Assembly (NCBI GenBank): GCA_048213135.1
Contig: PS015030.1
Location: 213,424 to 260,354, forward strand
Source: Reclinomonas americana ATCC 50394
Lineage: Eukaryota
Direction of reading: 5' to 3'
Length of the DNA stretch: 46,931 nt
Shown: positions 3,001-46,300 of the stretch, piece after piece
Position numbering within the stretch: position 1 is the stretch's first letter
Layout: every line of letters begins with the position of its first letter
Program-made: the position numbers and the translations under genes
The notes under the pieces: generated by a model
Databases searched by the model: none
The model's input: the letters and a program-made list of their open reading frames with translations, nothing else
Told to the model about the DNA's origin: nothing

Positions 3001-6000
3001 CCGTTCAAGCCAAGCACAAACGAGATGCGAGTACTCGACACAAATGTCACACTGCTCGGCACGCGAGTCCACGCATCCGCCAGGTTGATCGGAGAGCACG
3101 ACCGCGCAACAACAACCGCCTGCGCATCTCCACCGGCTGTGAGGTCCGTGAACGACTGACCGTTGATGCTGAACGACTGCTGCGACCCAACGCCGCCAAT
3201 GCTGACAGCAGCAGGTGACACGGACGAGAACCCAGCTGTGCACATCAAAGAACACACACATGTATCCACACAAGTGAGTCGATTGATCATTCGGCCAAAG
3301 AAAAAACACCACGATACGAACCCACGTCAAGTGTGCCGACGCTGGAAAACGGCGCTCCTGTTCCCCATGATGCACATATCTGGTACGTGCCAGACACGCT
3401 GCTCAGTCCCAGATACGGAACACCCAGACTGATACTATTGTTCGTGATGGCTGTCGCCGTGAGCGTGGCCACAGACGGTCCACTGGCACACGAGGCACGA
3501 AGCACAAAAGATGTCGTCGACTGGCTGCCCACGTAACCCCCGCCACCAGTTAATGTCACTATGCCCGGCGTCAGATCTCGCAGCACCATTGCTGGGCTTG
3601 TAGTGGTCGACGACACAGAGTAAATGCCGAGTGGCGCCAACATTGACGGAGGTTGATTGGGAATCTGGGTGCACAAGTAGTACATGCCGCCAGTCTGGCC
3701 ACTTCCGTTCACCGTCAACGACGCGGTAGTTGACGTGACTGACCCAACAGTCACTCCCACGGTCGTCGGTACCATACATGCGCTGTCCGATGTCACGAAC
3801 ACAATTAGCGTGCCACCAAACCCGCTGCCATTCAGCACCTCCGTCTGCCCAGCGAGAGCCGGAATCGCCGTTGGCGACACCCCAGTAACAACAAACACGC
3901 CAATCTGGCCTGCATCCACATATCCGAGGGTCGGCCACAATCGCACACACAGTCGATAGACACCAGTCGACACGCCGGTGGCATCGAAGCCAAACACCGA
4001 CTGCGTGGTGCTGGCCGACGACAGAGATGTCGTGTACCTCACAGCGGAAATGTCGGCGTTGCTACAAGTCGGGTTGGACGCAGCATCCACCACCAATGCC
4101 ACTGGGTCTGTCGGCACCGTGCGTGCACCAGGCGGTAGCAAGCCAGTTCCCGACACACGAAGTTGGTGTGTCACACCGACGCCGGCCAGAATCGAACTGG
4201 GAACGAGCGAAGAAAATGATGCTGCTCACACACACACACATCATTTCACACCGTGAGACGCACAAGCAAACTGAAGGAAACGAGAGCATGTGCACTCACC
4301 CACGGTGACACCAGCCGAGTACGTATCCTCATACGGAACACCAGAGGCGGCAGAAGCACGCATGCACACGCGATACACGCCACCCGTCGACGATCCACTC
4401 GGCAGCACTGTCACTCTCATGGCTGTCGAACCCGTCACTGAATCGACTGTCCCACCCACACCCGCTGTCGTGTCCGCGCTAACACTGCACGAGCCGCTGG
4501 TCAACACCAGCATGCGCGTCACTGCCTGCAGCGACGCCAAGAAGCCACCACCCGAGATCTGCAGCTGCGTGCTGTACCCCGCGGGAAAAATCGGCGGCGT
4601 GATGCTTGAGACAGAAGCCAGCGCCAAGGCGCCAGCACTCTCGTATGTCGCACCAGTCGCCCACCGAATGCCTGTGCGCAAACACCCGGGCGTGAGAACG
4701 ATGAAAGTGACACTCAAGCTGATGAACTGCATATTCTTCTCTCTTCGCTCCCCCAAACTCACACAGCTGATAGTTTCCAGCTGGCGTCGTCGCCGATGCA
4801 CTAACGACGCTGGTTGTCAACGTCTGCGCGTCCACATACTGAGTCGACTGTGTCGACGTTGACATGACTGCTGTCGGTGCCGCGGCCGCACACGACGACG
4901 ATACCACAAACAGGGAAGCGTCGCTGGCCAATGATGCCGCAAATCCACCACCTCCAACTTGCACCGTGTGACTGTGAGACGAAGTGGCATCATGAGATCC
5001 AAATTCGCCATCTTGGGTACATCACTCTTCAGCAAACTCACGAGTTGCTGGCATTGATGAAGATTAGAGCCGGTGTCACAGAGGTTNNNNNNNNNNNNNN
5101 NNNNNNNNNNNNNNNNNNNNNNNNNNNNNNNNNNNNNNNNNNNNNNNNNNNNNNNNNNNNNNNNNNNNNNNNNNNNNNNNNNNNNNNNNNNNNNNNNNNN
5201 NNNNNNNNNNNNNNNNNNNNNNNNNNNNNNNNNNNNNNNNNNNNNNNNNNNNNNNNNNNNNNNNNNNNNNNNNNNNNNNNNNNNNNNNNNNNNNNNNNNN
5301 NNNNNNNNNNNNNNNNNNNNNNNNNNNNNNNNNNNNNNNNNNNNNNNNNNNNNNNNNNNNNNNNNNNNNNNNNNNNNNNNNNNNNNNNNNNNNNNNNNNN
5401 NNNNNNGACACGGCAAACGTGCAGGTACATACCACACACATACACGTATCCGCTGCTCGCATCGTATGTGATTGCGGTCTGCACAGGAGGACGGGATAAT
5501 GAGATCAGAGAGGCAGAGGTCTACGAAAGAGAGAGAGAGAGAAACAGACAGTACCGGATTGTTGAAGCGAGCCGAAGTCGTCGATCCATCCGTAAACCCA
5601 TTGTCTCCAGCAATGCCAGCCAGAGTCGATGTCACACCAGCTGATGTGATCAGTCGAATCAAATGGTTGCTCGTCTGCCAGATGCACACACCACGTGTGA
5701 GGTCAGCATGCGCCAGATAACGGAGAGAAGAGTACCTCCTCAAACCAAGCACGCAACATCAGCCACATACACATTGTATGTCGCAACGTCCACAAAGACG
5801 CCTGATGGCGAGCGAAACTTGGCCGTTCCTCGTGCGCCATCAGTGGACCCAAGACTCCCCTTCACACCAGCAAATGTGCTGACCAGATTTGTGCTGAAGT
5901 CGATCTGTCGAATGGCATGATTGCTACGGTCGGCGATGAACAGAAGCAGCCGAGTCGCGTCGTAGTAGAGGCCGTAAGGTCCATTGAAGCGAGCTGCTGT

Positions 6001-9000
6001 GCTGTTGCCATCCGCCGTGCCAGACACTCCCACAGCGCCGAATATGCGTGTCACCACGCCAGCGTACGTCACAGTGCTGCAGCGTGCACACGCGTCAGAG
6101 AAGCACGTGCCATGAATGACTGACAATATCGTGTGCACACCGAATCGTGTGATTGCCGGTGTCACTGACAAAGAGCACTTGGTTACCGGCGTCGATGCCG
6201 ATACCTCCAGGACTTGTGAACGCTGCCGCAGTGCCCGTACCATCTGCACTACCTGGCGACGCAGGCTGTCCCGCAACAGTGGTGACAACACCGCCAGACG
6301 TGATCTGCCGGATAATGTGATTTCCCGTCTGCGAAATACCACGAGTCACAGATGTCAGTCGTCTTACAAGCGGCGCACACCGTTGAGAGAGCGAAAAGGC
6401 AACGAACATCTGCCACATAGACATTGCCGGTGCTAGTATCCATTGTAACATCACGAGGACTGCATAAAACAGCGACGTGTGAGGTGCACTGACTTTCGAC
6501 GCACGGCATTGCACAAGAGTCCAACTCACTTGTTGAAGCGAGACGCCGTGTTTGTACCGTCCAGGTAGCCACGAACGCCAACAAGGCCAGCAAACGCCGT
6601 CACCACAGCGCCAGTGGTCATGCGACGAATGACCAAATTGCTGCGCGGTCATGCATTAGAAGGACGAAACACACACATACACACACACACACACACACGC
6701 ACACACGGAAATACTTCGCACCTCGTGTCAACCACATAGAACGTGGATGCACCGTCAAAAACGATGCCCTACATCGTTAAATCACAATGAAAGTCAGCAG
6801 ACGGACAATGCAGACTACCAACGCATACCAAGAATCACACCTGCGGGTTCTGGAATCGTGCAGAGGTGCCAGTTCCAAGTGATGACCCCTGCGAGCCCGG
6901 CGTTCCAGCAAACACCGCTACATTCGACGAGAAGTTGACCACATTGGTGGTGTACTCGAAGCCAGTGGTCAGTGTGCCAAGACCAAGTGTGTCAACTGAC
7001 CCACTCAACACGGCTGTGCTGTCGGTGATGCTGCTCACGCTCACCGTTGTCGTCTGCTGCGCAGCCACCGACCGCACAGTAAAACCAAATACACTACTCG
7101 AAGCCGTGATGCCGGCACTAGTGGCCATTGCTTGCACAAAGTACGTGCTGTTCAACGGCAGTCCAGTCAGTGTTGCGGTGACCGTCACGGTTCCCGTGCC
7201 AGTGATTCCAGTCGGTGTCGCAGTAACCGTGTCGGACGTGGGCACCAGCACCTCGCGGATCTGATTGTTGAAACTGAGCGCGTAGGACAAACAAGTGAGC
7301 GCAAGAAAAATGAGAGACACAAATGAATGGAGCAACGAGAAGAATGACTCACGTGTCTGCGATAACAACATTGCCGGTGCTATCCGTCGTCACACCAAAT
7401 GGATAGTAAAAGCGACCACTTGCAATTGGGCCGTTGGTCGCCGCCGGATTAGTGGTACCGGTGTAAGAAGTCACGACGGCCCCCGGAACGGTGACACGCC
7501 GAATCTGATGGTTGCCGGGGTCGGCAACGTACATCGCGTCATCAGTTGTCGTCAGTGCCAGGCCAACTGGTCCCTGGAACCTCGCCGATGTACCAGTGGC
7601 ATTGGTAGACCCGGCAGTGGTCGACCCGGCAAATGTCGTCACAACACCGGCCGACGTGATGGCGCGCAGCTGCCGATTGCCCGTATCGGCCACATACAAC
7701 ACGCTGCTCGGCTGGTGGAACACAACGCCAGAGGGCGCTGTATGGGACGAACGCGGTGAGTGACGGAGAACGGGAGACAGACGGAAGCAAATGACAACTC
7801 AACTATTGAACCTGGCCGCCGTGCCAGTGGCATTTGTGGTGCCAGATACACCCGCACCACCCGCAAACGTGGACACCGACAGCGTCGCAACGTCGATCTT
7901 GCGAATCGTGTGCGACAAAGTATCCGCCACGTATAACGTAGTCACTGCGTCGTCAACTGCCACATCGCGTGGTCCATTGAAGCTGCCCGGTGTGCCGTCA
8001 GCCGTGCCTGGTGTGTCAGGTGTGCCAGCTATCGTGGTCACCACGCCAGCCAACGTGATCTGCCGTTGTATGCGTGTGTCAGCAGGACGGCAAAACCCAA
8101 TCAAGATCACAAATGAACGCGTAACTCGACGAATGGTGTGCGACCCCGAATCCGCCACATATATCACATCATTTGCGTCGATGCAGATGCCTTGCGGGCC
8201 GTTGAACCGCGCGCTGGTACCAACAGCGTTGTCAGTGCTTCCAGGCGTGAGCGCCAAACCGGCGAAGGTGGTCACGGCACCCACGGAAGTCACTCGACGG
8301 ATGGTGTGGTTTTGCGTCTGTAGACGGTGAAGAGAATCATGAGCCGATATGAGAGCGGACACTCGCACAGGGTGGAGCGACGCAACGTCAGCCACGTATG
8401 CATTGCCGGAGGAATCGCACGCCACATCCGTGGGGAAGTTGAAGCGCGCGGTGGTACCGGAGGCATCAACTGCACCGGCATTCGAAATCTTGCCGGCGAG
8501 CGACGAGACGGTCAGCGTGGCCACATCAACCTTGCGAATGTTGTTGTTGCCCGAGTCGGCAACGTACATATTGCCACTGCCGTCAAAGGTGATGCCGCGA
8601 GGTGTGTAGAAGCGAGCACTAGTACCGACGCCGTCTTGGAAGCCGAATGCCACGTTGGTTCCTGCCTCCCGCAAAATACGACAAGAAAGACACGAGGCAT
8701 CATTCAGTACAGACATTGGTTTCCAGTGAGAAACTCCACCAACGTACCGAGAATAGTTGCGGTCGTGAGAGTGTTCGTGTCCAGAGTACGAATGGTCTGA
8801 TTGCTCGATTCGCTATAGTACAGTACGCCATTGTACAGGCAGAAATTGGTGCCGCCATTCAGTCGTGCAGCGGTGCCGGTACCGTCGGTGGTGCCGCCAT
8901 TGCCCATCAAACCGATAACCGTGGTCACAACGCCGGCCATCGTGACCTGTCGCGGAGATATGAGGCAACACCAGAACGACGGTGGAGGTAGGAAAGCGAG

Positions 9001-11579
9001 AGAGAGCGAGAGAAGGGTGGAGGATGGGGGAGAGATATCATCGCATCTCACCTTGCGAACGACACGATTCGACACGTCCAGCACCCAAACCACGTTATTG
9101 GCAGCGTCATATGCCACATCCCAAGGCTACAGCACACCCCAGTGAGTGAGCTCTTCCCAGAAAAAAACACATCACCCTCCGTCTCCGCGGTGTACTCACA
9201 GCGTTGAAAAGCGCCGCACTTCCAGTACCGTCCGATTGGCCGGCTGTACCAGCTGTTCCTGCGAGCGTGGTGACCACGGCGCTGGGGGAGACCAATCGAA
9301 TGGTGTTGCTGTCGGTCTGCATGAACGGGCGACAGGGTGTGAGCATGTGAGAGACGTCGACAAGAAGAACAAGACCACGCAACATCAGCCACAATCGCAC
9401 TGCCATCGACTGTGTATATGTCGAGGCCACTTGGGTTCTGTGCGAAGCAATGTAGAGTGAGAATTTGATGATGATCTTGAGCATTTGCGCTGCATCATCA
9501 TACCTGAAATCGAGCAGCCGTGCCCGTGCCGTCCACAGTGCCGGCGGTGCCAGCGAGACCAGCGACTGAAGTGACAACGGCTGACGTGGAGATTGAGCGG
9601 ATAGTCGAGTTGCCCGACTGCATGCACGAGAGGGGGAAAGAGGTGAGAAAGGAAGGGGAATGCGTGACGAGACACAGCGAATGACACAGCTCGAAAACAC
9701 ATGCCGCGGATTGGAATAAGATGCACACATGCACACACGACATGTGTTGATTATCGCACGCAACATCGGCAACCCACAGAGTGCCACTCGCATCCACCAC
9801 AATGTCACGAGGAGCGTTGAACCGTGCCGCTGCATCACCATGACATGGGTCACAACACAGCTCACTGCGCAAGCACAGCGCGAGAGAGAAACGAACCGGT
9901 GCCTGTGCCATCGGTAGAACCGGCTGAGCTGCTCGTAGAACCAGCAAATGTTGTCACCACGCCGGCGGCCGTCACTTGGCGGATGGAGTTGCTGAATCTG
10001 TGGCGTGAAAGAGAGAGAGGGCTGCTTTCAGCATGACAGCGACGAGAGAGAGGGAGACAGAGAGAGAGAGACAGAGAGAGAGAGAGAAGCGTAACAATGC
10101 AGTCTCACATATCTGCACACCACACACACGTGTCCTTACAGAGAGAGAAAGAGGCATACAAAGGCAGCCCACCAGCACGTTGATTTCCTCTCATTGTTGC
10201 GAGGCCACAAAGAATACAGTGAAGAGACGGGACAGCGCAGAAGGGACGGACATCGAAGCACNNNNNNNNNNNNNNNNNNNNNNNNNNNNNNNNNNNNNNN
10301 NNNNNNNNNNNNNNNNNNNNNNNNNNNNNNNNNNNNNNNNNNNNNNNNNNNNNNNNNNNNNNNNNNNNNNNNNNNNNNNNNNNNNNNNNNNNNNNNNNNN
10401 NNNNNNNNNNNNNNNNNNNNNNNNNNNNNNNNNNNNNNNNNNNNNNNNNNNNNNNNNNNNNNNNNNNNNNNNNNNNNNNNNNNNNNNNNNNNNNNNNNNN
10501 NNNNNNNNNNNNNNNNNNNNNNNNNNNNNNNNNNNNNNNNNNNNNNNNNNNNNNNNNNNNNNNNNNNNNNNNNNNNNNNNNNNNNNNNNNNNNNNNNNNN
10601 NNNNNNNNNNNNNNNNNNNNNNNNNNNNNNNNNNNNNNNNNNNNAGAGAGAGAGAGAGAGAGCAGCCTCGCGTCTTCGATGGACAGTGCCTCAAGCATAC
10701 GATAGCGAGAGGGGAAACGAGCACAGAAGAGGGTGCGCGTGAGACAGAGAGAGAGAGAGAGAGAGTACGGATGGAGGAGAGAGCGAGCGAGAGACAAGCA
10801 GCTTAACACAGGTGCTTGCTGAAGAAGAGCACCCGAAACACAAGCAGCGAGACCAGGAAGACCAACGCAAGAAAGGCGCAGCTCACCGATCGGCCACATA
10901 GATGACTCCTGCCGACGTCGACGTGATGCCCAACAATCCGTTGAACGTCGCCACTGTGGCAGCTCCATTCGTCTGCCCGCCCGTCTGCGCCTGTCCCGCC
11001 AGCGACACCACCGTCGACGAGTACGCACTCTGATCTGTCGCATACTGAAACGTGACAGTCGTCGCTGCGCCTCCATTCGCACTCGCGAACGCCGTAAAGA
11101 GGACAGATCCATTTTGCACGTTGGCCATCGGCGTGTTGAGCACAGTCGCCGATTGCGCATTGGCGAGGAGAATGAATGATGATGATGATGATGATGATGA
11201 CAATGCGATGAGACACAGTGAAATTAAGATGACCAATGTCGTGATTGCGATGGAGACTGCTCTTGCACTCCGTCTGTGTGAGTGGAGGAAAGAGAGAGCG
11301 AGTGTGTGCAAGTGAGTGAGTGAACACACATAGATATTGTCTAACTATCGCACACACCGTCTTGTGTGCGCACTCATGGTGTAAGCACGAAAGCACACGT
11401 GCACGAGCACAAACAGGAAGGCTATGTGTCGCCGCGAAGCCAAGGAGTGTGTGCGTGTGTGAGTGTGAAAAATTCGGACAAATTGGTGGGACCAGGTGCG
11501 CACACAGCGACGTTCTGTTGTGCATGCAGAACAAGAGGGCACACCCGGCAAGCGAGTGTTGTGAGCAAGGGCTTTGCAT
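1..11579 (-). CDS. Large secreted/cell-surface multidomain protein, 3'-partial (runs off the window start): signal peptide, [split FN3 + 12 NHL repeats], [split FN3 + 6 NHL repeats], several IPT/TIG-like repeats with paired Cys, then Ser/Thr/Val-rich Ig-like repeats; about 30 introns
   Basis: Exons join in frame across GT-AG introns. N-terminus ITTLVILISLCLIAL...LLANAQ; repeats of the form YVAD-xxNHTIRxxT-xxGVVTTxAG-xxG-xxDG-xGT-xARFNxPxG (NHL); long ORFs 894-3290, 3287-4174 and 4241-4801. The start at 11579 (exon 11579-11545, phase-2 join to the acceptor near 11274) is tentative. Gaps 5086-5406 and 10262-10644 lie inside the gene. Confidence 0.85.
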
Positions 11580-17488: not shown

Positions 17489-20400
17489 ATTAACTTCCTC
17501 TCTCTCNNNNNNNNNNNNNNNNNNNNNNNNNNNNNNNNNNCCCGCCCTCACTCTCACACTCTCTGTCTCCCCTCCCTCTCTCTCACACTCTCTCTCTCTC
17601 TCTCTCTGTGCAGAATGACATTCTCGAGGTGTTTGTGTGGTCGCCCTCCGAGGGCGAGGAGATGGAAGGCGAAGGAGGCGATCGACTGGAGTGTGTGTTG
17701 CAAGAGCGCATGTTTGCGGATGTGGCGGCTGCAGTGTGCATTCCGTCGTCCTCGCGGTGAGTGGTGAGGAGAAGGAAGAGAGTGGAGAGAGCTCCTCCTC
17801 TTCTCCTGCTTGCTTCCTCGTCTGCTGGAACGACACAAGGTAGAAGACGTTGCGACTGTTCTTCTTCCTCCACTGCTTCTTCCTCCTGCACCTTCTGCTC
17901 CGAGGTCGCTGCGTCTTGCTTCCAACCGAGGGTTGAGCTCCTCCTCCTCTCTTCTCCATTCCGTCTTTGCTTCTTCTGCTTGCTTCCTCTTCTCCTGGAA
18001 AGACACAAGGTAGAAGACGTTGCGACTGTTCTTCTTTCTCCACTGCTTCTTCCACTACTTCCTCCTGCGCCTTCTGATTCTTGCTTCCAAGAGACGAAAT
18101 GGGCAGAGTCCTCCTCCCTTCTCCATGTCGTTTTTGCTTCTTCTTCGTGCTGCGATCTTTTTTTGATAAAGGGATCATCGTCTTCGTCTTCTTCTTGCTC
18201 TTATAGTCACATTCTACGAAAGAGACGAAGAGGAACGAAGTGGGCAGAGATTGGAGCTCCTCCCCTGTACTTCTTCCCACCGTAATCGTCGCCTTTCTGC
18301 TGAAAGATACAGAGGGAGTGGGGAATAAGAATGTACAGGAGGGAGCAGAGAGCGATCTTCTTCTTCTCCCCTTTCCTCACCCCCTGCTTCTTGCACGCAT
18401 CACGGTCTCACTACTTCTGTCTTCAAAGAGACGAAGAGGAACGAAGTGGGGGGAGGTGAAGTCTCCGTTACTCTTCTCTCTTTCTCTTGCTTTCTATCCA
18501 TGCGGCGATCTTCGTTTTTGAACAATGCCAGGGGGATGAGAAGACCCTGCTCAACGAAGAAGGGAGAAGCGAGAGGCCTACTCTCTCCTCTGCTGTCGCC
18601 ATCCTCCCCCTCGGCTTCATCGTTCCCTCAGCCTGTCTCCTTTCATCCTTGAGAAAACAGCAACATGTAAGCTTCACTTCTCTTTCTTCCCTTCAATCTC
18701 TTCCCCCTCTCCCTTCCCCTTCACGCCCTCAATCCCCACACCGCGCAGCCTCCGCCGCGATCACCTGCTCCTCGTCGGTGAAGACATGTCCTTTGCGATT
18801 GTGCAATGGAACGAGGAGGCGTGCCGCTTCTGTACCGTCGAGGGCGGCGAGTTGAAGGCGCGCTCCGAGTCCATGGATGAGTTTCCACGGGTGCGCGTTG
18901 TTGTCCACACTCTACTTCTTCATCAACTGTTGTTGATTCTCTCGTGTGCAGTTGCTGTGTCGACCTGTGGTCTGCTGCTCGGGTTTCCGCGGCGATCAGA
19001 GTGCGCAGCGCATCGTGTGTGTCGCCGGTTTCCGTGGCCTGCTGCACGGGCTAGCGGTGGTCGGTGACACGGGGCGCGTGACCACCAAGTTGCCGTTTCG
19101 CTTCCAGTTGTCGCGTGCCACCGAGAAGGACGCCGTGGTGTCCATGTGCTTCCTGGAGGGTCGCGGAGCGCAGGATTGTCAGGCACGTACTTGGTGGAAT
19201 ATGTGTGCGATGTGGCGTTAATGGACGTGCTTTGCAGGGCGTGCCGATTCTGGCCGTCTTGTATCAGGAGGTGGTGCATCGGTTCGACGCTCCACTCGTG
19301 CACGTGCAGTGCTTGGTGCCGAATTTTGCGAGCAGAAGACTGGACCAAGGTTGCGTAAGGGGGGACTAACTTGATTAAGAGGCGATTCTGCGCTCGCTGC
19401 ACTCTAGAGTGCTTTCACCACTGTTTGTATTGTCCTGCTGTCGCACCCACTTCCCATTCTTGCCGTGCGACTTTTGTTTAACGTCTCACTCGCAGTTCAC
19501 TTCTCTCACTTGTCCGCACGCCCTTTGTGCTCCTCGCTGTCTCACGCATTCCGTTACATTGCCCATAACTCACTTTTCTCGCCGTGTCTCTCTCTTCTCC
19601 CACCGCTGCCTGTCACGCGTCAATATTCCAGTGTCTTCTCTCTAATTCAATCTTTCTCCCTTCGTTTCTCCCTGCCACAAACCTTCCTCTCACACCGCCT
19701 TCCCTCTTCTCGCAGGTCCCTGGGCCGTGCGCAACGTCCACCCCCTGAGTTGCCACATCCTCCCCGTCGCACACCTCTCTTCCGCCGTCTCCACGGCGCT
19801 CGTGATCACTCCGTCCTCCGCGCTCTTGTTTTGCGAAGACGGCTTGCTGTTTGAGATTCAGCTGCCGTTCGCCGCCCCCTCTGCATGTGTCCGCCTCGAC
19901 AGACCAGACCTGCCGCAGCACGCCGGGGCCGTGCATCAGTCGGTCTTGTGCGACTCGGCGGGTGCGCTGCATGTGCTGGAGTTGTTTGTCCGCGATCCAA
20001 CACAAGAGCTAGCCGGCAACGTGTGCTCAGTTGCATTCGCCCTTCATTCTCCCCACTCGGTGTGTCCTGCCTAGTTGTTTCGTGACGGTGTTGGCACAGA
20101 TCGGCCCGGCGGAGATCTCCCAAGCTGTGGCGTGCGAATGCACAGTGCTTGCTGTACTGCCGGTGGCGCCGGATCCGGTGGCGTCGTTTGTTGCCATGGT
20201 TGGCTCGTCGTATGGTCACTCGCGGTTGCATCGACTCTCCGGCGCTGCCATCACCCAGTGGGAGTGTGAGGAGTTGGTGAGGCGCGCATGTGGGGAGTTG
20301 TCGATGTGCATGGTGCTGACTTGTTTGCCAACCCAGAATCCCCAATTCACGGAGAGTCGCGGCTCGCTGGTTGATGTGTGCTCGAACGCGCACGGTGTTC

Positions 20401-25653: not shown

Positions 25654-28600
25654 TCATATCTTCAACCCCGACGTGCAATCACCGCTCGTCGCACACGCTG
25701 TCGCCGTCGACGTGGCCACAACGCCACTCTTCGGCACACACTGCTTGGTCGACGCCGTGAACGTCCACGAGCCACAGGCGGTCAACTGGGAACACCACAG
25801 TGAGCAGGCTTGTGGTCCAGTTGTTGTCTTGATGGCCCACGTGAGATCGCCACCAGGTCGATCTGCATGCCAACAATAAGCCACATGTCAGTCACGATTC
25901 TCTCTCATCTCTCATCTCTACCACTCACCCGTGTTGGTCTGGAAGCCGCTGCTGTCATACGCCGCCACACTCGTCTTGCGTCCCGATACCAAGCAGAAGT
26001 GCGAGCCACACACGTTGCTGGTCTCTGCATTGGCTGCAGCTGCTGGCACGGTGCTCTGCATTCACCGGTGAGCATGTCATTTCCTCACAATCTCTTTCGG
26101 CGATCACCGACGACGTGCCTTCAGCGTGCACAAATTCACGCCGAGAGTGTTGGATGCCGCAGCAGCATCCAGGAAAATCCATGATCGACATTGCGAGTAC
26201 TGATCGCACAGTTCGCAGCACCCGACCTCACTGCGCGCAGAAACAAGGGTCGCCACGATCGTGCCACCAGGTCGATCCACTGCCTCAAACTGGCACACTT
26301 CCAAAGCCGCTGCTCGAAGCGAGTGCGAGTGAGACAGCAGAAGATGCCGAGAACGAAAGCCCACAAGTGACGCAACATGCCACAGCTCCATTCTGCACCG
26401 TTGAACAACCGGTGTTCATTGCTACACACGCAGGCAAGTAATGTTAGTACCGTACCCCTTAGTGNNNNNNNNNNNNNNNNNNNNGCAGTCCTCCCTCCTC
26501 AAGCTTGGCCTTGGATTCACGACGACACTGCCTTCCTTCCACTCTCAGCCAGTGATCTTTGACCCACTACTGTTCACCCTCCACTCTTCGCCTCGGTTTC
26601 TCTGTTTGTCTTCCCTCGCCATTCTCAGATGTGCACAAACATATTGGCACTTAGCCCCTCTCCCCTGTCAATCTGTTCCACCCTACTGCTATCTCCTTCC
26701 CCCATGGCGCACCATACACAATCATGAACTGCTTGGTGTACGTCAGCGCGCCATCGCTCACTTGCACAAACACTTGCAGTCGCCGACTCAGTGGCGGAGC
26801 CACCGAGATTGTCAGCTGGTTGCCACCCACCAGGCTGAACAGAGCCGCATGCACGCCGCCCACAATGCTGAATGTCGGCGTCTGTCCCGTGTTGAGATCC
26901 AGCATGCTCAGTGTCCCAACGGTGAATGGCACCGTCGCACTCGAGTACGTCTGCGGTCCCGACAGCAGAATGTCACTCGGACCAACACTCCCTGCACATA
27001 ATTATGGTCAGCTGACACTCGCATAGAAACACATGCTTACATACATACCGACATCTATGCACATAGAGGGAGAGGGGAGAGAGAGAGATAAATTGCGACA
27101 GAGAGAAGAACAACATGAAGGAATGAAGCACAGTTCTAGATCTCCACACACAAACAAACAAACGACGGCTGAATACTCCCTGCGCTCTCCCTTCCCCTCA
27201 TTCCTCACCAATGGCAAATGCCGACACCGCCAGATACGTCTTTGTTGACGCCCACCGTGTGCACAGCTCGTACGTGCCAGTAGCTGCACCCGCCGCCCCA
27301 ATCGTCAGCGTGATGCTGGTCGAGCTACCGAATACACTGCTGACGGTGGTGCTGGCCACGGCCGTCGGCGGTGTCGTGGCAGCACAGAGAGGAGTGGCAA
27401 GCACATACGCCGACGCATCAGCCGAGTTGTTCACCAGCGCGGTTCCCGTCAGTGTAATCATTTGACCGGCCAGAGCCGACACAAACGTGGCCGACAGCGA
27501 TGTCACAGTGGGGACTGCAGGAAGGCAGTCAGTATCAACGTGCAATACAACCTCATGCACAATCAGAATAAACACACACCAGCAACGTTAAACGTCTGAT
27601 CGAACGACATGGCAGGATTACCATTGTCGGTCGAGCGCACAATCACCACCAACGATGCCGTCACACCCGCACTCGCAAACTGCAGCTGGTTGCCAGACGC
27701 AATTGTCACCAATGCGCTGCTGGCACCACCCACCACCGAATACGTGAACGACTGCTGCGAGTCCACATCGCTCGTGCTCATCGTGCCGATCGCCTGCCCC
27801 ATCGCGCTGGGCGGGATGTACGAGCTCACGCTCAGTGTCACCGCCGTTGGTGCATTGTTCACTGCGTGAAGACGAGGTCAGCATGCACGCCAAGGAACAC
27901 ACCACTCCCAATCAATCGTCCACTCACCCGACGTCACACTGAATGACTTGTCGACAAACATCGGAGGCGTGCCGTTGTCGAACGAACGGACTATGACAAC
28001 CAGCGGACTGGCCGACTGGCCCGCCGAGGTGATCTGCAGCTGTGCGCCAGCGCTCACCGAAAACGCAATGCCGTTCGCTCCTCCACTGACCGCGTAGGTA
28101 AACGACTGTCCCACGTTATCGTCGCTGGTGCTCATAGTACATAACGGAACACTGGCCGTCGACGGTGCGACATATGTGGTGGTTCCGGTACACGCAGCAT
28201 CGGTCGGCGCCGAGTTGGAGGTGGTGAATGACATGGTGGAGCCGGTGAGGGTGCTCGGCACGGTGGAGGTTGACAGGGCACGAAAGTAGTACGTCCAATT
28301 GGCGGCGAGCGACGTCAGTGATGCGGTAAGTGTGGTGATGGAGGCGACACCGGAAGAAGCCGGGGTGGCCGAGACGGTGGAGGAGCCGATGGTGAGTCGG
28401 CGAACAGTTAAACCAATATGATCTGCAGACTTCAATGTTGAGGAACAAGGCGGAAGAAGACGATATTTACGGGAGATACACGCACTGGCAATGTACAAAA
28501 CGGACGCCGTGGTATCATACGCCATGAATACCTGGAGTCAGCGAGTCGTCAAATTTGACAGTTTTCTTGGCAGGAGTCACGAGGAAAGTAGACGAACCGG

Positions 28601-30215
28601 CCCGTTGAGTCGAGCAACGGTCAGCGGGCTTCCGTCGGCTGATCCGCTGACTCCTGTAGCACCAGCTATTCGTGTCACAGCACCCGTGCTGACAACGACT
28701 TGGCGAATGGTGTGGTTGCCATACTTCGAAAGGCAACAGATTGTACAAAGTTAGGCGACGAGAAAATTCACAGCGCACGTTGAACTGCAGAACACGCAAC
28801 TTCTGAAACATAAAGAACGCCTCGACCACGATCAAGTTGGATGCCAATTGGTTGGTTGAAAAGAGCCGCGGTGCCTGTGGCATCTGTCGACCCTAAAAAC
28901 CCGGCGACCGAGCCAGCCAGAGTCGACAAAGTCATCGCCAGCATGTCAATCGCACGAATGTTGTGGCGATATCGATCAGCTGCTCATCACGAGAGTGTGA
29001 GAGCACGTCACGAAAAGACGGTGGCCAGTCGACGCAGAGACGAGCACACTCACCGACATACAGCCGATTGGCCGTCGTGTCCAGCGCCATGCCGTACGGT
29101 GTACCAAGCCGCGCTGTTGTTGCACAGGCTCCATCAACGATTCCCGACGACCCAATCGTGCCACAGTAGGTGGTGACTTCGCCGCCATAAGTGACCTGAG
29201 GTAAGCACATAAGCACTGGACGAAGTTACAGGACTATCGAAACTGCTAACACACACACACACACACACACACACACCTTCCTGACAGCACAATTCAGAAC
29301 ATCACCAACATACATGAGTTTGTTGGCCGCATCAACCACGATGCCGTGCGGACCATTGAATCTCGCACTCGATCCGGTGCCATTCGCAGTGCCGGCAGTC
29401 CCGTTACCGGCCAGAGTAGACACAGAACCGGACGGAGTGCTCACACGGATGGCATGGTTGGTGTTCTGCAAAGCCAGACTGTGAGCAACCGAGAAGACGT
29501 CCTGGCATAAGGAAGCACAATCACAACGCAACATCATCGATGTACAGGTACCCAGTGGTCGAGTCAATCGACACATCGCTTGGATTGTTGAACCGCGCAG
29601 CAGCGCCGATTCCATTGACAAAGCCCGGCACACCAGCACTTCCCAGAAATGTCGACGTTACACCGCCGCTCGTCACTCGCCGAATCGAGTGATTTGCTTG
29701 ATCACATATAAATGCGGTGCCAGAAGCATCTAGCGCGATACTCTGCGACTTCACATCAGTAAATGGTTATATGTGAAGCGTGTGAAGAGATGCCTACCAC
29801 AGAGCCGTTGAAACGAGCAGCTGTGCCAGTACCATCCGTCGAGCCAGACATACCCGCCGTGCCCAACCACGTCGACACAGTTGGCGTGGCACCAAGCGCA
29901 GCTGCTGTCGGTGCCCACTCGAATGAGTTTGTCATCGTCGAGGCCGCCACGGAGTTGCCCACCACCGCATTCAATGTTGCCAACGACGTCGTGACACTGC
30001 TGGCCGCGAGCGTGGACAGCGACTGGGTGGCTGCGGCACAACGAAGAGGAAGCACTCAGCAGCCGGAAGACATCAAGGATGACGAGAAGAAGTAAAAGAG
30101 GAAGAAGAGGAAGAGGAAAAGAAGGAGGGGGATAAAGAGAAGAAGGAGAATGAGGAGAAGAAGGAAAAGGAGAAGAAGGACAAGAAGGAGAAGAAGAAGA
30201 AAAAGGAAGAGAAGA

Positions 30216-30252
<37 letters not shown>

Positions 30253-33200
30253 AGAAAGAAAGAAGAAGAAGAAGAAGAAGAAGAAGNNNNNNNNNNNNNN
30301 NNNNNNNNNNNNNNNNNNNNNNNNNNNNNNNNNNNNNNNNNNNNNNNNNNNNNNNNNNNNNNNNNNNNNNNNNNNNNNNNNNNNNNNNNNNNNNNNNNNN
30401 NNNNNNNNNNNNNNNNNNNNNNNNNNNNNNNNNNNNNNNNNNNNNNNNNNNNNNNNNNNNNNNNNNNNNNNNNNNNNNNNNNNNNNNNNNNNNNNNNNNN
30501 NNNNNNNNNNNNNNNNNNNNNNNNNNNNNNNNNNNNNNNNNNNNNNNNNNNNNNNNNNNNNNNNNNNNNNNNNNNNNNNNNNNNNNNNNNNNNNNNNNNN
30601 NNNNNNNNNNNNNNNNNNNNNNNNNNNNNNNNNNNNNNNNNNNNNNNNNNNNNNNNNNNNNNNNNNNNNNNAAGAAGAGGAAGAAGAGAAAAGTAAGAGA
30701 AGGAGGGGGAGGAGGAGAAATACAGGGGCACGGAGAAAGAAAGACACGAAGGAAAAAGAGGGACAAGAGGGGAATACAGAAGACGGGGAGGAGGATGAGA
30801 ACGAGAGGGAGAGGTGGAGAGGAAGACGTAGAAAAATAAGAAGGGCAAGAAGATGAAGAAGGAGAAGAGGAGAAGAAGAAGGAGAATAAGGAAACGAAAG
30901 TCATCAGAACAACTCAATGAAAATGACGCATACGAAGACGAGACAAGAGAGAGAGAGTAAGAAGAGAATGAGCAGGAGAGGCAGCAATAGAGCACAAGAC
31001 CATGCAGCTGCACATCGCCTCACCTGCGGTGATGGTGAACGCCTTGTCAAAGAAAAGCGGCGGCGTTCCATTGTCCGTCGACCGGATCGTCACCGCCAGC
31101 GAGCTGCCCGCCTGCCCAGCCGCCACAATCACCAATGACTGTCCGCTGATCGAAAACACCGCGCTGTTGGCGCCACCGACAATCGAGTATGTGAACGACT
31201 GGCCCGCATTCGCGTCCGTCGTCTGCAGCGCACATACGACCTGATTCGCCACCGACGGCGGCACATACGTCGTCGACGAGCAGCTAATGTCGGTCGGAGC
31301 CACATTCGTGATGGTGGTGAATGACACGGTGGCGCCGTTGATGGTGCTGGGCGTGGAAGTGACACCGACGGCGCGGTAGTAGTACGTCCAGTTGCTCGCC
31401 AATCCAGTCAGTGAGGCGGTGATGGAGGTGGCAACGGAGCCAGTGGAGGTGGCGGGTGTGGCTGACACCAATTGTGACGCCAGCGAGAGGCGACGGATGG
31501 TGTGCGTGTTGTAATCGGCAATCAGCACCGATGCTGTCGATGCATCGAAGGCGAGGTGGACAGGCGAGTTGAAGCGTGCCACGGTCAGTGCGCTGCCGTT
31601 GGCTGAGCCGCTCACGCCCGCCGCGCCGCCGATCGTTGTCACAGACGAGTCTGACACACGAATGCTTCGCACGGTGTTGTTGGCAGACTGCGTGAGAGTT
31701 CAGGCTGTCAGGTCAAGAAGCGAAGACGCAGAGAGTGTGGGGTGATACTCAACATCGGCGATATAGATGACGTTGTTTCCAGAGTCGTATGCCAGTCCGA
31801 TCGGTGCGTTGAAGCGGGCAGCCGTTCCTGGTGTGCATCGATGAGTGCACACGCAAACGATCACACTGATTCGCACCTGATGAACTCACCGGTGGCATCC
31901 GTGGATCCAGATGCTCCGCTCGTTGAACCCGCCACCGTCGTCAGCGTCATCGCCACAGTGTCAATGGCTCGGATGGAGTTGTTCACGCGATCGGCTTCAC
32001 ATGCACAAGCAGGATGGCAGGATGAGAATGGGAGGAAGGGAATCTCTCTCTCTATCCCCCACAGCGCTCACCAACATACAGCGTGGTTCCAACGAGAAGC
32101 ACGCCATTGGGACCACCGAATCGTGCCGTTCCCGCACACGCACCATCGGCAGTGCCACTCATGCCCGTCGTGCCACAAAAGGTCGTCACCGCACCGGCAT
32201 AGGTCACTCGCCGCACAGTGTTGTTGAGCCAGTCGCCCACATACACCACTTGATTTGTGGAATCCACCGCGATGCCCGCAGGCTGATTGAAGGAGGCTGC
32301 TGCACCCGAGGCATTGGCACTCCCCGACACTCCGTTTCCCGCCAGTGTGGTTACCACGGCCGCTGCGGTGACCGCGCGCACGGCGTGGTTTGTCAACTGT
32401 AAGAAAGACAGAGTCACAGTCACCGGAATGCATTCATCAAGCTTGATCACGCCAGCACACACTCACATCGGCGGTATAGATGGTTCCCGTGGATTGATCG
32501 ATGGCGAGGCCGGCAACACTGCGAGAGAGTGAGTGAAACAGAGGGAGAGGAAGGGAAGAAGAGAGTGAGAGAGAGGACGGGAAGAAGAGAGAAGGGAGAA
32601 CGCACTTTTTGAACTGAGCTGCCACTCCTGTCGCATTCGTCAGGCCGCATGTGCTTCCCGCAAAGGTGGTCACAGTCGCTGCGGGTGTGATGCGTCGAAT
32701 GCGACAGTTGCTGCCATCATCATCATCGCGTGTCAGAGAGTGAGAAGGAAGCGACGAATCAACTGACAAGTGCGTGACGGACACAACTTGTAATCGCCCA
32801 CGTACACATTGCCCATGGCGTCAAAGGCAAGTCCCTGTTGAGAGAGAACACACACTCAATGTATCAGCAAAAGCGCACAGCTGGCGCAGCAGGGACACTT
32901 GTCGCAGCGTGCACAAACCATCGGCCCGTTGAACAATGCACTTGCTCCACCTCCGTCCGTCGTTCCCGAGGTGCCCGCCGTGCCCACAAAGGTGGAGACA
33001 GTGGCAGTGGGAACGCCGAAAGCAGCAGCATAGAGTGACCACTCGAACGAGTTGGTGGTGCCGCCGGCGACGTTGTTGGGATTGATCCACGCATTGAGAG
33101 TGGCGGACGTGCCGGTGATGTTGTTAGCGACGGCGGTGGTCACTGTCTGGGCGTCTGCGACGCACACGGAGAGCGAAGAATTGTGCGCGTGTGTCAGTGT

Positions 33201-33349
33201 GCGGGTGAGAGGTGCGGGCTCGAGTGGCGAGGGGAGGGTGAAGAAAAGGGAAACGAGGAGCGCCATACAAGAGAAGATATGGAAGGCTGCAAATTCACAA
33301 CGTTTCTACCAAAACGAAGAAGAGAGTGCACGACGGAAAGAGAGGGCGA

Positions 33350-33417
<68 letters not shown>

Positions 33418-33542
33418 ATGTGCACTCTCACACAAGCACACACAAGCACACACACACACACGCAGTCGCAACTTGCAGTGACCGCGAGTGAGAGGACAAG
33501 CGCGAGGGCGACGATGAGCGCGACGGTGAGGAGCAGGCGCAT
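25654..33542 (-). CDS. Secreted multidomain adhesin/lectin-like protein: signal peptide - [FN3 split by 6 NHL] - cadherin-like - [FN3 split by 6 NHL] - 2x cadherin-like - IPT-like - cadherin-like - 2x PAN/Apple; about 24 introns
   Basis: MRLLLTVALIVALALVLSLAVTA|NAQ signal; NHL repeats; NxAPTDIxxS...TxDxxxGQSFTYSxxGG...VxxRSTDNGxP cadherin-like motifs; DRPGG...C..C....C.SW.F....C.LKS PAN/Apple pattern twice; stop after GLKI at 25654. No transmembrane segment seen. Confidence 0.85.
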
Positions 33543-34124: not shown

Positions 34125-34633
34125 ATGGAGTCAAATCTCGGCCTCGTCGACCCTGTTGTTGCGTTCCTCCCTGTGCCCAGTCTTCTCTCTCTCTCTCACT
34201 TGCCAGTCTCTGATTCGCTGTTTTGTTGGGCATGCACAGTGTCACAATCAACAGTGAGGAAGTCGTGTCTACTCTCTCTGTGTGTGTGTGGCCAAGTGCC
34301 CCTCTCACACTGAGTGTGTATGTGTGTGTGCAGCTACGATGTGTTGCCAGGGTGGTTGCAGGCGGGCGAGCAGTGTGCGCGCGAGGGCAACACGCAAAGT
34401 GCGTGGTGAGAGAGAGAGAGAGAGAGAGAGTGAGTGAGTGAGGGAAAGGGAAAGAGAGAGAGAGAGAGTGAGAGCGAGAGAGAGAGAGAGGAGGAGAGGA
34501 GGAGAGGAGAAGGAAGGAAGAGAGAGANNNNNNNNNNNNNNNNNNNNNNNNNNNNNNNNNNNNNNNNNNNNNNNNNNNNNNNNNNNNNNNNNNNNNNNTT
34601 CCCTACCCGCCGTTCTCGCTCGTCCTTCGTCGC

Positions 34634-34672
<39 letters not shown>

Positions 34673-35230: not shown

Positions 35231-35822
35231 TCATTCCGGCACGCCCTCCAGACTCAAGTGCGGGTCCACGCCCACGTGCGCGTGTTGGTCAGTGTTGTTG
35301 TTGCCGAATGACACGGTCGTCTGTGGAGCGAGAGGGTAGGAAGTGAGGAAGGAGCAGGGGAAGGAAGAGAACAAGGAGACAGGGAATAGAGGAACGAGGA
35401 GGAGGAGGAGAGGAAGGAGGCGGGCAGGAAAGGAGACTAACAACGAGGATGAGAACAAAAGAAAGCGGTAAAGGAGAAGGATTGTACATGTGAGTCTCTC
35501 GCTTGCTCAGCAGCAGGCATGCTCTCTCTGTCTCTCTCTGTCTCTCTCTCTCTCTCTCTCTACACTCATTCCACACTTCTCTCTCTCTCTCTCCCTCTCA
35601 TGCCCTGCTCATACGCATGTTCTCGTTTTCCTGTCTCCCTCTCTGCCCTTCTCTCTCTCTCTCTGTGCACGCAACAGTGTCATCATTGCCGTGCACATCA
35701 ACGTGGTTGACTTCCTCGTTCTTGGAGCTTTGAGCTGCATGCAACAGAAGAAAGCAAGTGAGTGAGCACACACACACACACACGACAACTAAGAGCAGTG
35801 AAAGTCACGCACAGGCACCCAT
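35231..35822 (-). CDS. Hypothetical 52-aa protein with an N-myristoylation motif, 3 exons (35822-35813, 35734-35676, 35320-35231)
   Basis: A-rich context before the ATG; donors GTGCGT and GTTGCGT; CAG acceptors; phases 1 and 0. Product MGASQSSKNEEVNHVDVHGNDDTTTVSFGNNNTDQHAHVGVDPHLSLEGVPE*. Confidence 0.65.
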
Positions 35823-39305: not shown

Positions 39306-39339
<34 letters not shown>

Positions 39340-39896
39340 GTTCTGTGCGATGCAGCACGAGTGAGCAACCCTTTGTGCAGCATTGAGAAACAAGAGAGAG
39401 AAACTGAGAGGGAGATGTGCAAACCTTTGTGCACTTCTGTAGGATGGGTGTGTGAGGGAGAGAAAGGACGAGATCTGGAGACAGCAGCGCAGTGCTGTGC
39501 ACAAGAGTGAGCAACCCGTTGTGCAGCGTTGTCGAGCAAGAGAGTGAGGCACGGAGAGGCGAAGATCGAGAGATAGATCTGGAGACAAGTGCAGAGTTGT
39601 GCGAGAGTGAGGCATTGGGGAGGAGAGATAGATCTTGAGACGGCAGTGCAGAGTTTGTACAGCAATGCAGAAAGGGGAACAAGCAAGAGAGCGCCTAAGG
39701 CACAGACAAGTCCCTCTCTCACTCTTCTCTCCCGTCCTCCATTCCTTCACTCCGCATTTCTCTGACACTGCTGAGACGCACAGATGTGGTGTTCAGGTTT
39801 CACTACTTGACGGGATCGTCCAAGTCGGGAGACATACCATTGGATGAGATCCCGGTGGGACCGATTCAGCAGGGAGTGTTGGAGTTTGTGTTGGAT
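38901..39896 (+). CDS. ASF1: ASF1-like histone H3/H4 chaperone, N-terminal two exons only (38901-39009, 39784-39896)
   Basis: MSKVVVKSANVLNNPSTVDANFQLQLRVEAIEALPE|DVVFRFHYLTGSSKSGDIPLDEIPVGPIQQGVLEFVLD aligns by eye with ASF1 MAKVQVNNVVVLDNPS...[27 protein letters not shown]...DQVLDSVLVGPV..G...FVF. Downstream exons were not found. Confidence 0.75.
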
Positions 39897-39969
39897 GTTG
39901 CGTGGAGGGGTTTATGGGAGGGAGGGGGCGGAGGGTGGAGAAGATCTTTGAAGAGGAGAGAGAAGAGAG

Positions 39970-43314: not shown

Positions 43315-46300
43315 TCAATACAGCTGCACAACCTTGACCCTCGTCTCTCTCCACCATTCCTCTCCTTCGACTATATCATCCATCTGCTTCATCAACTACA
43401 TAGCACCACCCTTTCCCTTCCTTCTCCCATCTCCCTTCCCCCAAACTCCCTCATCATTCCTCCCTTGCGATTATTCAATGATATCTCCTCACCACCTCAT
43501 CCAGCTGCTGCATCAACTGCGCCACCACACCTCAGTAAGCATCACCGCCCTTTCCTTTCTTCTCCCTTCCCCCATCTCCCCCTCACCTGCGGCGCATACA
43601 CCTCCCACCTCCTGTTGACCTCCACCAAGTGCTCCTCAATCAGCGCCAGCCGCGTGGCCAGCGTCTTCTCGGCTTTCCGTCTCGCCACCGTCAGTGTCAT
43701 GCACACAAACTCCACCACTGTGTCGCCACACTTTATCAGCGCAAGGCAATGCCCCTTCCCCTCCCCCCCTCCTCACACCGCCACGCAACATGGATGATCA
43801 TCCTGCGTCTTGCCCGTGCGCACATTGAAGAACGACCGCTGACCCGTGCGGCGATTCACGCTCGGAATCTGCCGCCCTCATTTTCTCAGTCACCACTCAC
43901 TTCTCTCTTTCCCAAACATCGCCCCCACTCACCCACTCGGGATCCAACGGCGCACTGAAAATGCGCTGCTTGGTGGCCTTGGACCACCGCCGGAACGTCC
44001 GCTCGAAATCCACCTTCTCCCTCTCCAACTCTGCCGCGCAGTGCTCCCTCTCGCGCATCATCGCCACCGACGTGGTCATGAGCTGGCGGTTCGCCGGACG
44101 CATGTGCTGCACGAATCCGGCACGGTCGCGCCACGCCGCCCGCAAGCGCGCACGCCGCCACAACCGAGCACGCGCCACCACAAACCACCAACGATGTCGC
44201 CGTACCAGCGCTCGCCGCCACACGCTCTGCACCAGCAGCACCTGTCGATGCCACTGCCGGAGTCGTGGCAGCCACTGCTGCGCGCGACACACGCACCCGC
44301 GCCACCACGCCTGTATGCGCACACATGCGTTGCACTCTGCCGGGCTCCGGAGGTGATGCTGCTGCTGCTGCTGCTGCGCCTCCACGCACTGCGCCACCCA
44401 CCGCGCCCGGCGACGAACAGCCTCGCGCGAGGCCGCCAGCAGCTCGCGCCGCCGCCGCGCCGCCTGCGCCACCAGTCGTCGACGAAAGCGCGTGCGACGC
44501 CACCACCTTTGCAGTTTCAGCAGCGTGTATTTCAGGCGGAGAGTGGACACGCCGTAGAGGGCGGCGGCCGAGGGAAAGGCGGAGAGGAGGCGCACGAGCG
44601 AGGCGCTGGTGTGTGTGGCGGTGGCATGGAGGCGGCGAGAGACGGCCAGAGTGCAGCGGGCGAGAAGAGTGTGGAATTCGGCGCGCGCTTGGGAGATGAA
44701 CTCTGCGCGAGGGTGGAAGGGGAAGGGGATGAGGAAAGGAAGGGGAGTGGGCAAAGGAGGGGAGGAGACGAGACGACAAATGGGCAAAGCAAGGATGCGG
44801 GGCAGGAAAGGAAAGATCTATTCCCCCTCACGCAACCACTGATAACCACAGCGCCGGGAACAGCACTGGCATCACCACCACCCTCGTCGCTCGCCGCCGT
44901 CCCCGCGAGCGGATTCGCAGGCGTCGATGGCCGCCCACCCACAGCCGAGGCCGGTCGACCACCGCCACCGGCCGCCGACGAGGCCACCGAGGCATTGGCC
45001 GCGTCGACCAGCTTGCGCACCGCCTTCAGCACCTTCATTAATCGCTGCCCGAGTTCCTGCGTGTCGGGCTCCAGTTCCACTTGCACACCGTCCCACACAT
45101 GCGCATTCTGCGGCGACAGCGGCACGCCGTCGCTCCCCACACTGCTTGGTGGTCTCAGATGTTGCTGTCGAAATGAAGACGAAGAGGCAGCCGACGCTGG
45201 CCGGCTGCTGCTGCTGCTGCTGCTGCTGGATGAGAGTGTCTGCCGCAGGAGCGCCAGCTGGTTCTGAAAGGCGTGATGTGAGATGCTCGAGTCGGCGGCC
45301 TTGGCGGAAGTACGTGATGTCATGTCAGTGCTGCCGACGCTGTCGATGAGGAGTGGGTTGTCGTGCGAGGCCACAGCGGTGACCGGGCTCAGCTGAGATG
45401 GCGAGCGTGACTGTGTGTTGGTGAGGGTGAAGAGTTGCTCCAGAGCTGAGTCCTCGCGCTCTGCGACGAGAGGGGAAGGGAGATCAGGCAACGGGGGCGG
45501 TAGTAACTCGTTCCTGTTGTTAGAGTACCTCTCCTCCATTGCTCCTGCAACCTCGCCGTCTCCACTTGCACCTCCGTCAACTCCTTCTCCGGCTGCGTTG
45601 CACGGGTAGTGAGGGATATGAGAATGGGGGAGGTGAGTGGGAAGCGAGAGGAGGGCTCTGGAGACAGACGAGCGTCGTACTGACTGCAGATCACCCAAGG
45701 GAGGAAGAGAAGAGAATGAGGAGGAGAGTGGGAAGCGAGAGGAGGGCTCTGATGACAGAGGAGCTTCTTTCTAACCGCAGAGTGGTGAGCGACTACCCAC
45801 GGGAGGAGGAGAAGAGAATGAGGGTGGTGAGGAAGGCAAACGAGAGGAGACTGGGAAGCGTGAGGAGGGCTCTGGAGACAGAGGAGCTTCTTACTGACTG
45901 CAGATCACCCAAGGGAGGAAGAGAAGAGAAGAGAATGGGGGTGGTGAGGAAGGCTAAGGGGAGGAGAGTGGGATTCGAGAGGAGGGCTCTGGAGACAGAG
46001 GAGCTTCTTTCTAACCGCAGAGTGGTGAGCGACTGCCCGCCCGCAGTCCAGGCGAACTTCTACTCTGCCGTACTCCTTCTCTTTCCCCCCATCTCAACCT
46101 GCATACCATCTCTATCTCTTGCAAAGCCGTTACGGAGATTGAAGAGAGCGAAGAGCAAAGAGAGATAAGCAAGAAGTGAAGAGAGAAAGTTGCTTTAAGC
46201 AGCTCACTCTTCTCCTCTCTCATCACGAGAGAGGATGCCTTGTGGCTCTCTCTTGTCCGTGAAACGCAACAATCGCCGCCAACTCCCTCCCACTCTGCTT

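Follow-up and report, generated by a model that had tools for sequence, protein, structure and literature searches.

Can a spliceosome read a sizeable part of its 5′ splice sites (5′ss) one nucleotide out of the usual register? The question is raised by a stretch of Reclinomonas americana ATCC 50394 (contig PS015030.1 of assembly GCA_048213135.1, positions 213,424 to 260,354), in which many putative introns begin with GTTGCGT or a related heptamer, that is, with the local donor consensus carrying one additional T after GT. Non-canonical 5′ss registers are so far rare exceptions in human, proven site by site. The whole stretch of 46,931 bases, which includes 12 assembly gaps (2,312 N in total), is called the window below; its sequence, intronless bacterial homologues and the literature form our evidence base, and all junctions were deduced from sequence. 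The extra-T donor class (the local consensus with a T added behind GT) probably exists and is commoner than a position-independent model predicts. It is well supported in two genes encoding NHL-repeat proteins, and its presence in two or three further genes is plausible. Its abundance and its spread across unrelated genes, both put forward in the initial annotation, are only partly shown.

The two large NHL genes are intron-dense, occupy bases 2-11200 and 25650-33540 of the minus strand and encode secreted NHL-repeat proteins whose closest database relatives are bacterial NHL proteins with about 40% identity. These relatives were used to place introns without regard to the donor sequence. For 43 modelled introns, all GT/AG pairs within 45 nt were joined in all phases, giving 1506 spliced peptides; 120 intronless NHL proteins from bacteria served as targets, and each peptide was scored by its best BLASTP alignment crossing the junction. 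Introns reaching 45 bits or more were considered as anchored. The test is confined to GT donors. Thirty of the 43 introns could be anchored, and the other 13, situated in non-NHL parts or beside gaps, were left unused.

Ten of the 30 anchored introns have extra-T donors: GTTGCGT six times, GTTGAGT twice, GTTGTGT and GTTACGC. Thirteen others are of GTG type (GTGAGT six times and, once each, GTGCGT, GTGAGC, GTGAGA, GTGCGA, GTGTGA, GTGTGC and GTGTGT), three of GTA type (GTATGA, GTACGT and GTAGGC), and four carry T at +3 in the canonical register (GTTCGT at 6407, 9896 and 28597 and GTTTGT at 32918, all on the minus strand). Nine GTTG[ACT]GT were present among the 264 candidate GT sites; seven of them gave the strictly best alignment, one was tied and one came second. 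The binomial probability of drawing at least nine such motifs in 30 is 4.6e-7, and that for seven 5.5e-5.

Seven of the ten occupy a single slot of the NHL repeat, in phase 0, right after a conserved Asp (Glu once), hereafter the D slot. In the first NHL gene these are the introns 8318..8386 (69 nt, GAC/GTTGCGT, best with 82.8 vs 76.3 bits, gapless), 9618..9764 (147 nt, GAT/GTTGCGT, best with 77.8 vs 69.7 bits, gapless), 9317..9383 (67 nt, GAT/GTTGCGT, tied at 63.5 bits with a GTCTTG donor joined to a later AG) and 5675..5757 (83 nt, GAT/GTTGCGT, with branch motif and CAG acceptor, second with 85.9 bits). In the second gene they are 29466..29532 (67 nt, GAT/GTTGCGT, best with 77.8 vs 76.6 bits), 31688..31753 (66 nt, GAT/GTTGAGT, best with 62.0 vs 58.2 bits) and 28724..28800 (77 nt, GAA/GTTGCGT, where E replaces D, with an AAG acceptor, best with 71.2 vs 63.9 bits). 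The remaining three, each placed best, differ in position and phase: 7738..7803 (66 nt, ATA/GTTGAGT, phase 1, after RFN in another NHL slot, 76.3 vs 72.4 bits), 8060..8125 (66 nt, CGA/GTTACGC, phase 0, after an IRR motif, 80.5 vs 71.6 bits) and 32711..32787 (77 nt, CAA/GTTGTGT, phase 2, 5 nt downstream of the D slot, 67.4 vs 62.4 bits, gapless). The intron at 8125 is a member of the class that the initial annotation did not list. All ten are on the minus strand, have ordinary lengths (median 69 nt) and contain a branch motif, CT[GCA]A[CT], that precedes the acceptor by 17-28 nt.

A gene finder in which every GT was scored equally, and which counted coding potential, branch motif CT[GC]A[CT], acceptor and intron length, gave usable models in the NHL genes only, the model of a DDB1-like gene on the plus strand being messy; its predictions within the NHL genes are the 43 introns of the homology test. 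Among its 56 predicted introns it chose seven extra-T donors, namely GTTGCGT at 8386, 9383, 9764 and 29532, GTTGAGT at 7803 and 31753, and GTTGTGT at 32787. A version with donor classes and self-training over-predicted genes on the antisense strand; it was discarded, and no counts were drawn from it.

The composition of the 30 anchored donors points to two registers. At position +3, T is found 14 times, G 13 times and A three times. G at +4 is tied to T at +3 (9/14 vs 1/16, Fisher p 0.0014), and GTTG donors have a non-G at +5 in 9/9 cases vs 1/21 of the remaining donors (p 7e-7), G-T being found at +6/+7. A position-independent matrix built from these same donors predicts 0.22 GTTGCGT, of which six are seen, and 0.31 GTTG[ACT]GT, of which nine are seen. 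Counting the D slot as one intron, extra-T donors amount to 4/22 vs 0.08 expected, so that the proposal of a local consensus with one more T at +3, far above independent expectation, holds in the window. Each extra-T form corresponds to a canonical donor of the same genes with a T inserted after GT (GCGT to GTGCGT, GAGT to GTGAGT, GTGT to GTGTGN, ACGC to GTACGT), and GTTCGT and GTTTGT fit naturally the ordinary register with T at +3.

Motif counts go partly in the same direction. All 15 GTTGCGT listed in the initial annotation are present on the strands given there, with G at position +8 in ten of them, and three further copies lie at 36238(-), 36605(+) and 46264(-). These 18 occurrences on both strands compare with 7.9 +/- 2.9 in dinucleotide-preserving shuffles, none of 100 shuffles reaching 18. 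GTTGAGT is not enriched overall in the window (7 seen vs 8.7 expected). In gene regions GTTGCGT is found 12 times on the sense and never on the antisense strand, which is weak evidence, since GT is abundant on sense strands and a maximal-order Markov model already predicts 7.8.

The reading that we prefer, and hold to be moderately probable, is that the extra-T heptamers are a genuine second donor class, read via a bulge at +3 (or +2) and kept by selection. The GTT[G/A]NG[T/C] heptamers, chiefly GTTGCGT, would be 5′ss cut before the first G, and the class would consist of the local canonical donors (GTGCGT, GTGAGT, GTGTGN, GTACGT) with an extra U after GU. The conserved block R-N-G-U(-G) would be read one nucleotide deeper into the intron: the extra U at +3 (equivalently +2) would bulge out of the pairing between 5′ss and small nuclear RNA (snRNA), and the snRNA bases that normally touch +3 to +6 would then touch +4 to +7.

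Could GTTGCGT instead go back to a single ancestral intron, multiplied together with the NHL repeat and keeping its donor, with no general class behind it? The concentration of seven anchored extra-T donors at the same phase-0 slot speaks for this, as does the absence of the motif from all seven introns modelled in the adjoining Ig-like gene part. We nevertheless regard this explanation as unlikely. Three anchored cases (7803, 8125, 32787) occupy other slots or phases, four frame-supported cases described below lie outside the NHL repeats, and the D slot itself also carries GTTCGT (6407) and GTGAGT (32466). Moreover, once the splice signals are trimmed, D-slot introns have a mean normalised alignment score of -0.086 vs -0.090 and -0.094, that is, they are no more alike than unrelated introns. 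Their bodies are fully diverged and therefore the heptamer has been kept or remade; this persistence in introns otherwise fully diverged is the reason why we propose that selection keeps the class. Collapsing the slot, as above, still leaves the excess over expectation.

Introner elements and other mobile introns provide many introns with a conserved 5′ end in common. The introns described here differ from them in having no mutual similarity beyond the splice signals, and the mean pairwise score of the D-slot introns equals that of unrelated ones, so that the likeness over the whole length expected of introner-like elements is not found. The shared intron-gain origin suggested earlier is unlikely for the same reason, the introns being alike in splice signals only.

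The D slot also bears on the exact position of the cut. A GC-AG reading, in which the cut falls at GTT/GCGT, would lengthen the exon by three bases and the protein by one residue. Eleven intronless NHL repeats have the spacing Asp, two residues, Asn/Ser, His/Asn, which fits a cut before GTT and not after it, and we rejected the GC-AG reading on this spacing. Exon position -1 is G in none of the ten extra-T introns vs 14 of the 20 other anchored ones (p 0.0003); in seven of the ten this is due to the exon ending in an Asp or Glu codon.

Outside the NHL repeats, four extra-T sites supported by the reading frame are probable donors. Two of them belong to the minus-strand gene at 43400-45800, which has a weak IQ motif. 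The intron 43718..43789 (72 nt, CAT/GTTGCGT, phase 1) starts at a GT that alone is in frame with the first CAG; a GTGAGT...CAG intron before it fixes the upstream exon, and a CAG/GTGAGG donor closes the downstream one. All rivals of this site, including 43784 and 43778 with GGAG, require a GAG or AAG acceptor. The intron 44703..44836 (134 nt, GTG/GTTGCGT, phase 1) is in frame with a CAG acceptor; its rival is an internal GTGAGG at 44831, which resembles other donors of the IQ-motif gene and is in frame only with CAGAG, two bases further on. At the end of the second NHL gene, the minus-strand intron 26310..26376 (67 nt, CAT/GTTGCGT, phase 1) combines a CTCAC branch motif with a CAG acceptor, and the next exon opens a Pfam PAN domain; the rival donor, GTGGGC 12 nt downstream in the same phase, is a poor one. 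Finally, in the DDB1-like gene on the plus strand, the CT-rich intron 19350..19715 (366 nt, AAG/GTTGCGT, phase 1) starts at a GT which, within about 50 nt, is the only one in phase to connect two protein-like open reading frames (ORFs), an internal GTAAGG at +5 being out of frame. The exon that it ends has no clean link to the preceding exon.

These sites lead to a second alternative, namely that the junctions are mis-modelled, the true donor being another GT (the internal GC/GT five bases in, or a nearby canonical one) and GTTGC being exonic. In-frame alternatives do exist at three sites, 44831 for 44836, 23890 and 23861 for the candidate 23885 discussed below, and 43784 and 43778 for 43789. 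Within the NHL genes, the internal donor 5752 (GTGCTT) combined with a GAG acceptor (ACGAG) reaches 88.2 bits and outscores 5757 by 2.3 bits. With the exception of 23861, these alternatives need a G at position -3 of the acceptor and skip the first CAG. Anchored acceptors have C at this position in 26 cases, T in two, A in two and G in none (n=30), and it is on this ground that internal-GT solutions are disfavoured. Other in-frame pairings have ordinary acceptors but non-consensus donors. The internal GTs of the NHL genes (GTGCTT, GTCGCT, GTGGTC, GTTGTG, GTGTTC) would be poor donors, that of 19350 is out of frame, and GTTGC would precede a true donor by chance about once in 1000 donors. Taken as a general explanation, mis-modelling thus seems quite improbable to us.

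Least probable of all is that no special register exists, +3 being free in this genome and GTTGCGT a tolerated weak donor in the ordinary register helped by proteins or U6/U5: T at +3 in nearly half of the anchored donors, GTTCGT and GTTTGT among them, and the U-pseudouridine contacts at +3/+4 documented in human (PMC4856993) would suit it, but it has to face the strong dependence between positions and a GCGT/GAGT/GTGT block displaced by exactly one base.

Minor introns were also considered. U12-type introns have a [A/G]TATCCTT donor and a TCCTTAAC-type branch site. The present introns begin with GTTGCGT and have CT[GC]A[CT] as branch motif, and this candidate was rejected.

Several points nevertheless weigh against a second, bulge-read class. 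First, seven anchored cases sit at one homologous slot, which reduces the independent observations to about four in the NHL genes and four elsewhere. Second, some homology margins are small: 29532 leads by 1.2 bits, 9383 is tied and 5757 comes second. Third, the internal GT five bases in starts GTAAG or GTGAG at 19350, 23885, 44836 and 15902, and the acceptor is YAGAG at 19350, 23885 and 44836, with donor +5/acceptor +2 being in frame too for 23885 and 44836. For 19350, this combination applies only to a nearer TAG acceptor and is out of frame with the acceptor at 19715. Fourth, every junction is a prediction, and the assignment of a register relies on this one window. Fifth, it is not enough to invoke simple bulged pairing with a standard U1, because GUUGCGU is predicted to form hardly any duplex in whichever register.

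This last point comes from duplex energies computed with the human-type U1 5′ end (PMC4856993), which may not be that of the host. With this U1, and bearing in mind that the host molecule may differ, mean values are -7.1 kcal/mol for 16 canonical donors, -3.3 for GTT[CT]GT and -1.6 for 15 extra-T sites. Whatever the register, GUUGCGU yields between +0.5 and -2.6 kcal/mol at ten of 11 sites, and -4.9 at 19350, where flanking bases are used. GUUGAGU reaches about -4.4 kcal/mol, and GUGCGU is also weak (-2.7). Therefore, if these sites are used, either the host snRNAs differ or proteins together with U6/U5 carry most of the recognition. Rfam detected no family of any kind in the window at gathering thresholds, snRNA genes included, and relaxing E to 1 brought up nothing resembling an snRNA.

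The candidate YAGAG acceptors, at 19405-19409, 23957-23961 and 44701-44705, accompany putative GTTGCGT donors having GT[AG]AG five bases in. The donor +5/acceptor +2 product would be three bases longer and may represent tandem alternative splicing.

Sites similar in design are known in human, where bulged (+2/+3) and shifted 5′ss/U1 registers have been proven in cells (PMC4856993). Like the human bulge +2/+3 or shifted +1 sites described by Roca and co-workers (Tan et al. 2016, PMC4856993), extra-T donors combine GU, an extra nucleotide and a consensus-like block; they have no canonical-register G at +5, and the cut stays at the first GU, here according to the homology placement. They differ in the block, which is GCGU here and AAGU in the human consensus, and above all in frequency. 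The curated human list contains 68 predicted bulge +2/+3 sites, and validated non-canonical registers together account for 1.5% of 201,541 sites (PMC4856993), whereas the class represents here ten of the 30 anchored introns of one gene family and about a fifth of the readable introns of the window.

The canonical class, GTG[C/A]GT(G), recalls Ostreococcus lucimarinus outside chromosome 2, with its GTGCGTG donors and GACTGACG branch sites (Irimia and Roy 2008, PMC2483917), and the branch motif near the CAG acceptor, CTGAC or CTCAC, is likewise as in the O. lucimarinus comparison. That genome is intron-poor and, in what the article says of its introns, has one rigid donor and no reported extra-T class (PMC2483917), whereas the genes of the window are intron-dense with variable donors. 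Irimia and Roy raised as an idea that snRNA changes could match the divergent GTGCGTG donor of Ostreococcus (PMC2483917). Concept searches of main texts yielded the human studies and general reviews but no lineage with a major class of extra-nucleotide or bulged donors, which is no proof of absence, and a search for the heptamer returned primers only.

A more ambitious proposal, which we put forward as a tentative possibility, is that GU-U-GCGU constitutes a major selected donor class, used by at least 15% of introns genome-wide and served by an adapted U1 (together with a U6 contact), for instance a variant or second U1 with a 5′ end matching GUUGCGU, or by a spliceosome routinely tolerating a +3 bulge in the U1 as well as the U6 helix. 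If this were true, R. americana would be the first organism with a non-canonical register as a main mode of splice-site recognition. A donor with an extra U common throughout the genome would offer a natural experiment on how U1, U6 and proofreading proteins set the cleavage position, would show how matrix-based gene finders miss such introns or shift the frame, and would allow testing the co-evolution of snRNAs with donor classes. If the class were limited to one repeat family, it would be a curiosity of intron inheritance.

How many of the proposed donors then stand? Among the 19 sites of the initial annotation, nine agree with the homology placement, seven as best, 9383 as a tie and 5757 in second place, and the four outside the NHL repeats follow from the frame only. 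Two compete with canonical donors in phase (23885, 33472), and 15902, 34158, 35675 and 39897 could not be verified. About a third of the listed sites (six of 19) is ambiguous or unverifiable, and the figure of 19 among 90 to 100 introns is overstated, 30 introns having been placed by homology and about 70 by eye. Use across unrelated genes was overstated too: it receives support from the DDB1-like gene, the IQ-motif gene and the PAN part of the second NHL gene, while seven of the ten anchored cases share one slot.

The first rivalled site, 23885..23959 (plus strand, 75 nt, ATC/GTTGCGT), is an ambiguous candidate intron of the DDB1-like gene: a canonical GTGCGT at 23861 can use the same CAG in phase, and GTGAGC at 23890 is also in frame with CAGAG. 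The shorter product presumably fits DDB1 better; searches of PDB with the two exons flanking 23885 gave no match. The second, 33155..33472 (minus strand, 318 nt, CAA/GTTGCGA), is an ambiguous candidate following a signal-peptide exon, in frame; a (GT)n run 15 nt downstream provides in-phase GTGTGT donors, a kind used elsewhere. At 15902, 34158 and 35675, the flanking putative exons translate to sequence that looks non-coding. The unverified GTTGCGT at 39897..39903 (plus strand) stands at the end of an ASF1-like exon (39784-39896; Pfam ASF1 E 4e-4, below cut-off), for which a homologue search gave no match. The exon downstream of it was not found, Pfam being negative on eight further ORFs (five of them in 42.5-43.8 kb), and a 1.27-kb duplicated repeat and a gap lie past this site.

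Some observations concern the genes themselves. The best matches of the NHL genes (5407-10261 and 28400-33150, minus strand) are bacterial and metagenome proteins, yet each gene has at least 20 spliceosomal introns; no eukaryotic relative appears among the 120 matches listed. The first gene runs on into a Ser/Thr/Val-rich repeat region, and the second has PAN domains at its end (Pfam PF14295, E 1.4e-7). Two PAN domains are found at 25654-26290 (minus strand), each opened by the same short motif, which suggests that the domain was duplicated. The second domain follows a phase-1 intron, and in the first the motif lies inside an exon, about 11 codons past an intron.

The DDB1/RSE1/CPSF1-like gene (plus strand, about 18786-24930) is very divergent. 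Pfam recognises a single exon of it (PF23726, E 3e-11), and this 98-aa exon weakly matches DDB1 residues about 424-496 in PDB (E 0.04). No true relative was found at E up to 0.001 when all 1.8 billion proteins were scanned with HMMER, the single bacterial repeat protein matched being judged spurious, and a word-indexed search with the DDB1-like exon had no match. The IQ motif of the 43400-45800 gene is below the Pfam cut-off (E 0.0098). A segment of this gene looks WW-like by eye; Pfam has no hit there. The non-NHL genes gave no usable match in a protein atlas, and no convincing coding signal was found at 11.3-18.7 kb and 33.8-39.7 kb.

Matches below the Rfam thresholds at 34385-34718, 35357-35638 and 46605-46885, to Hsp83 3′ UTR (untranslated region) and plant miRNA (microRNA) models, fall on GA/CT microsatellites, far below the cut-offs, and were discarded as low-complexity artefacts. 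A tandem duplication of about 1.27 kb (39971-42376; 86-95% identity), built from GA-rich units each about 100 nt long and spanning an assembly gap, begins 75 nt past the ASF1-like exon. A 102-nt duplicate is also present at 42950 and 43207.

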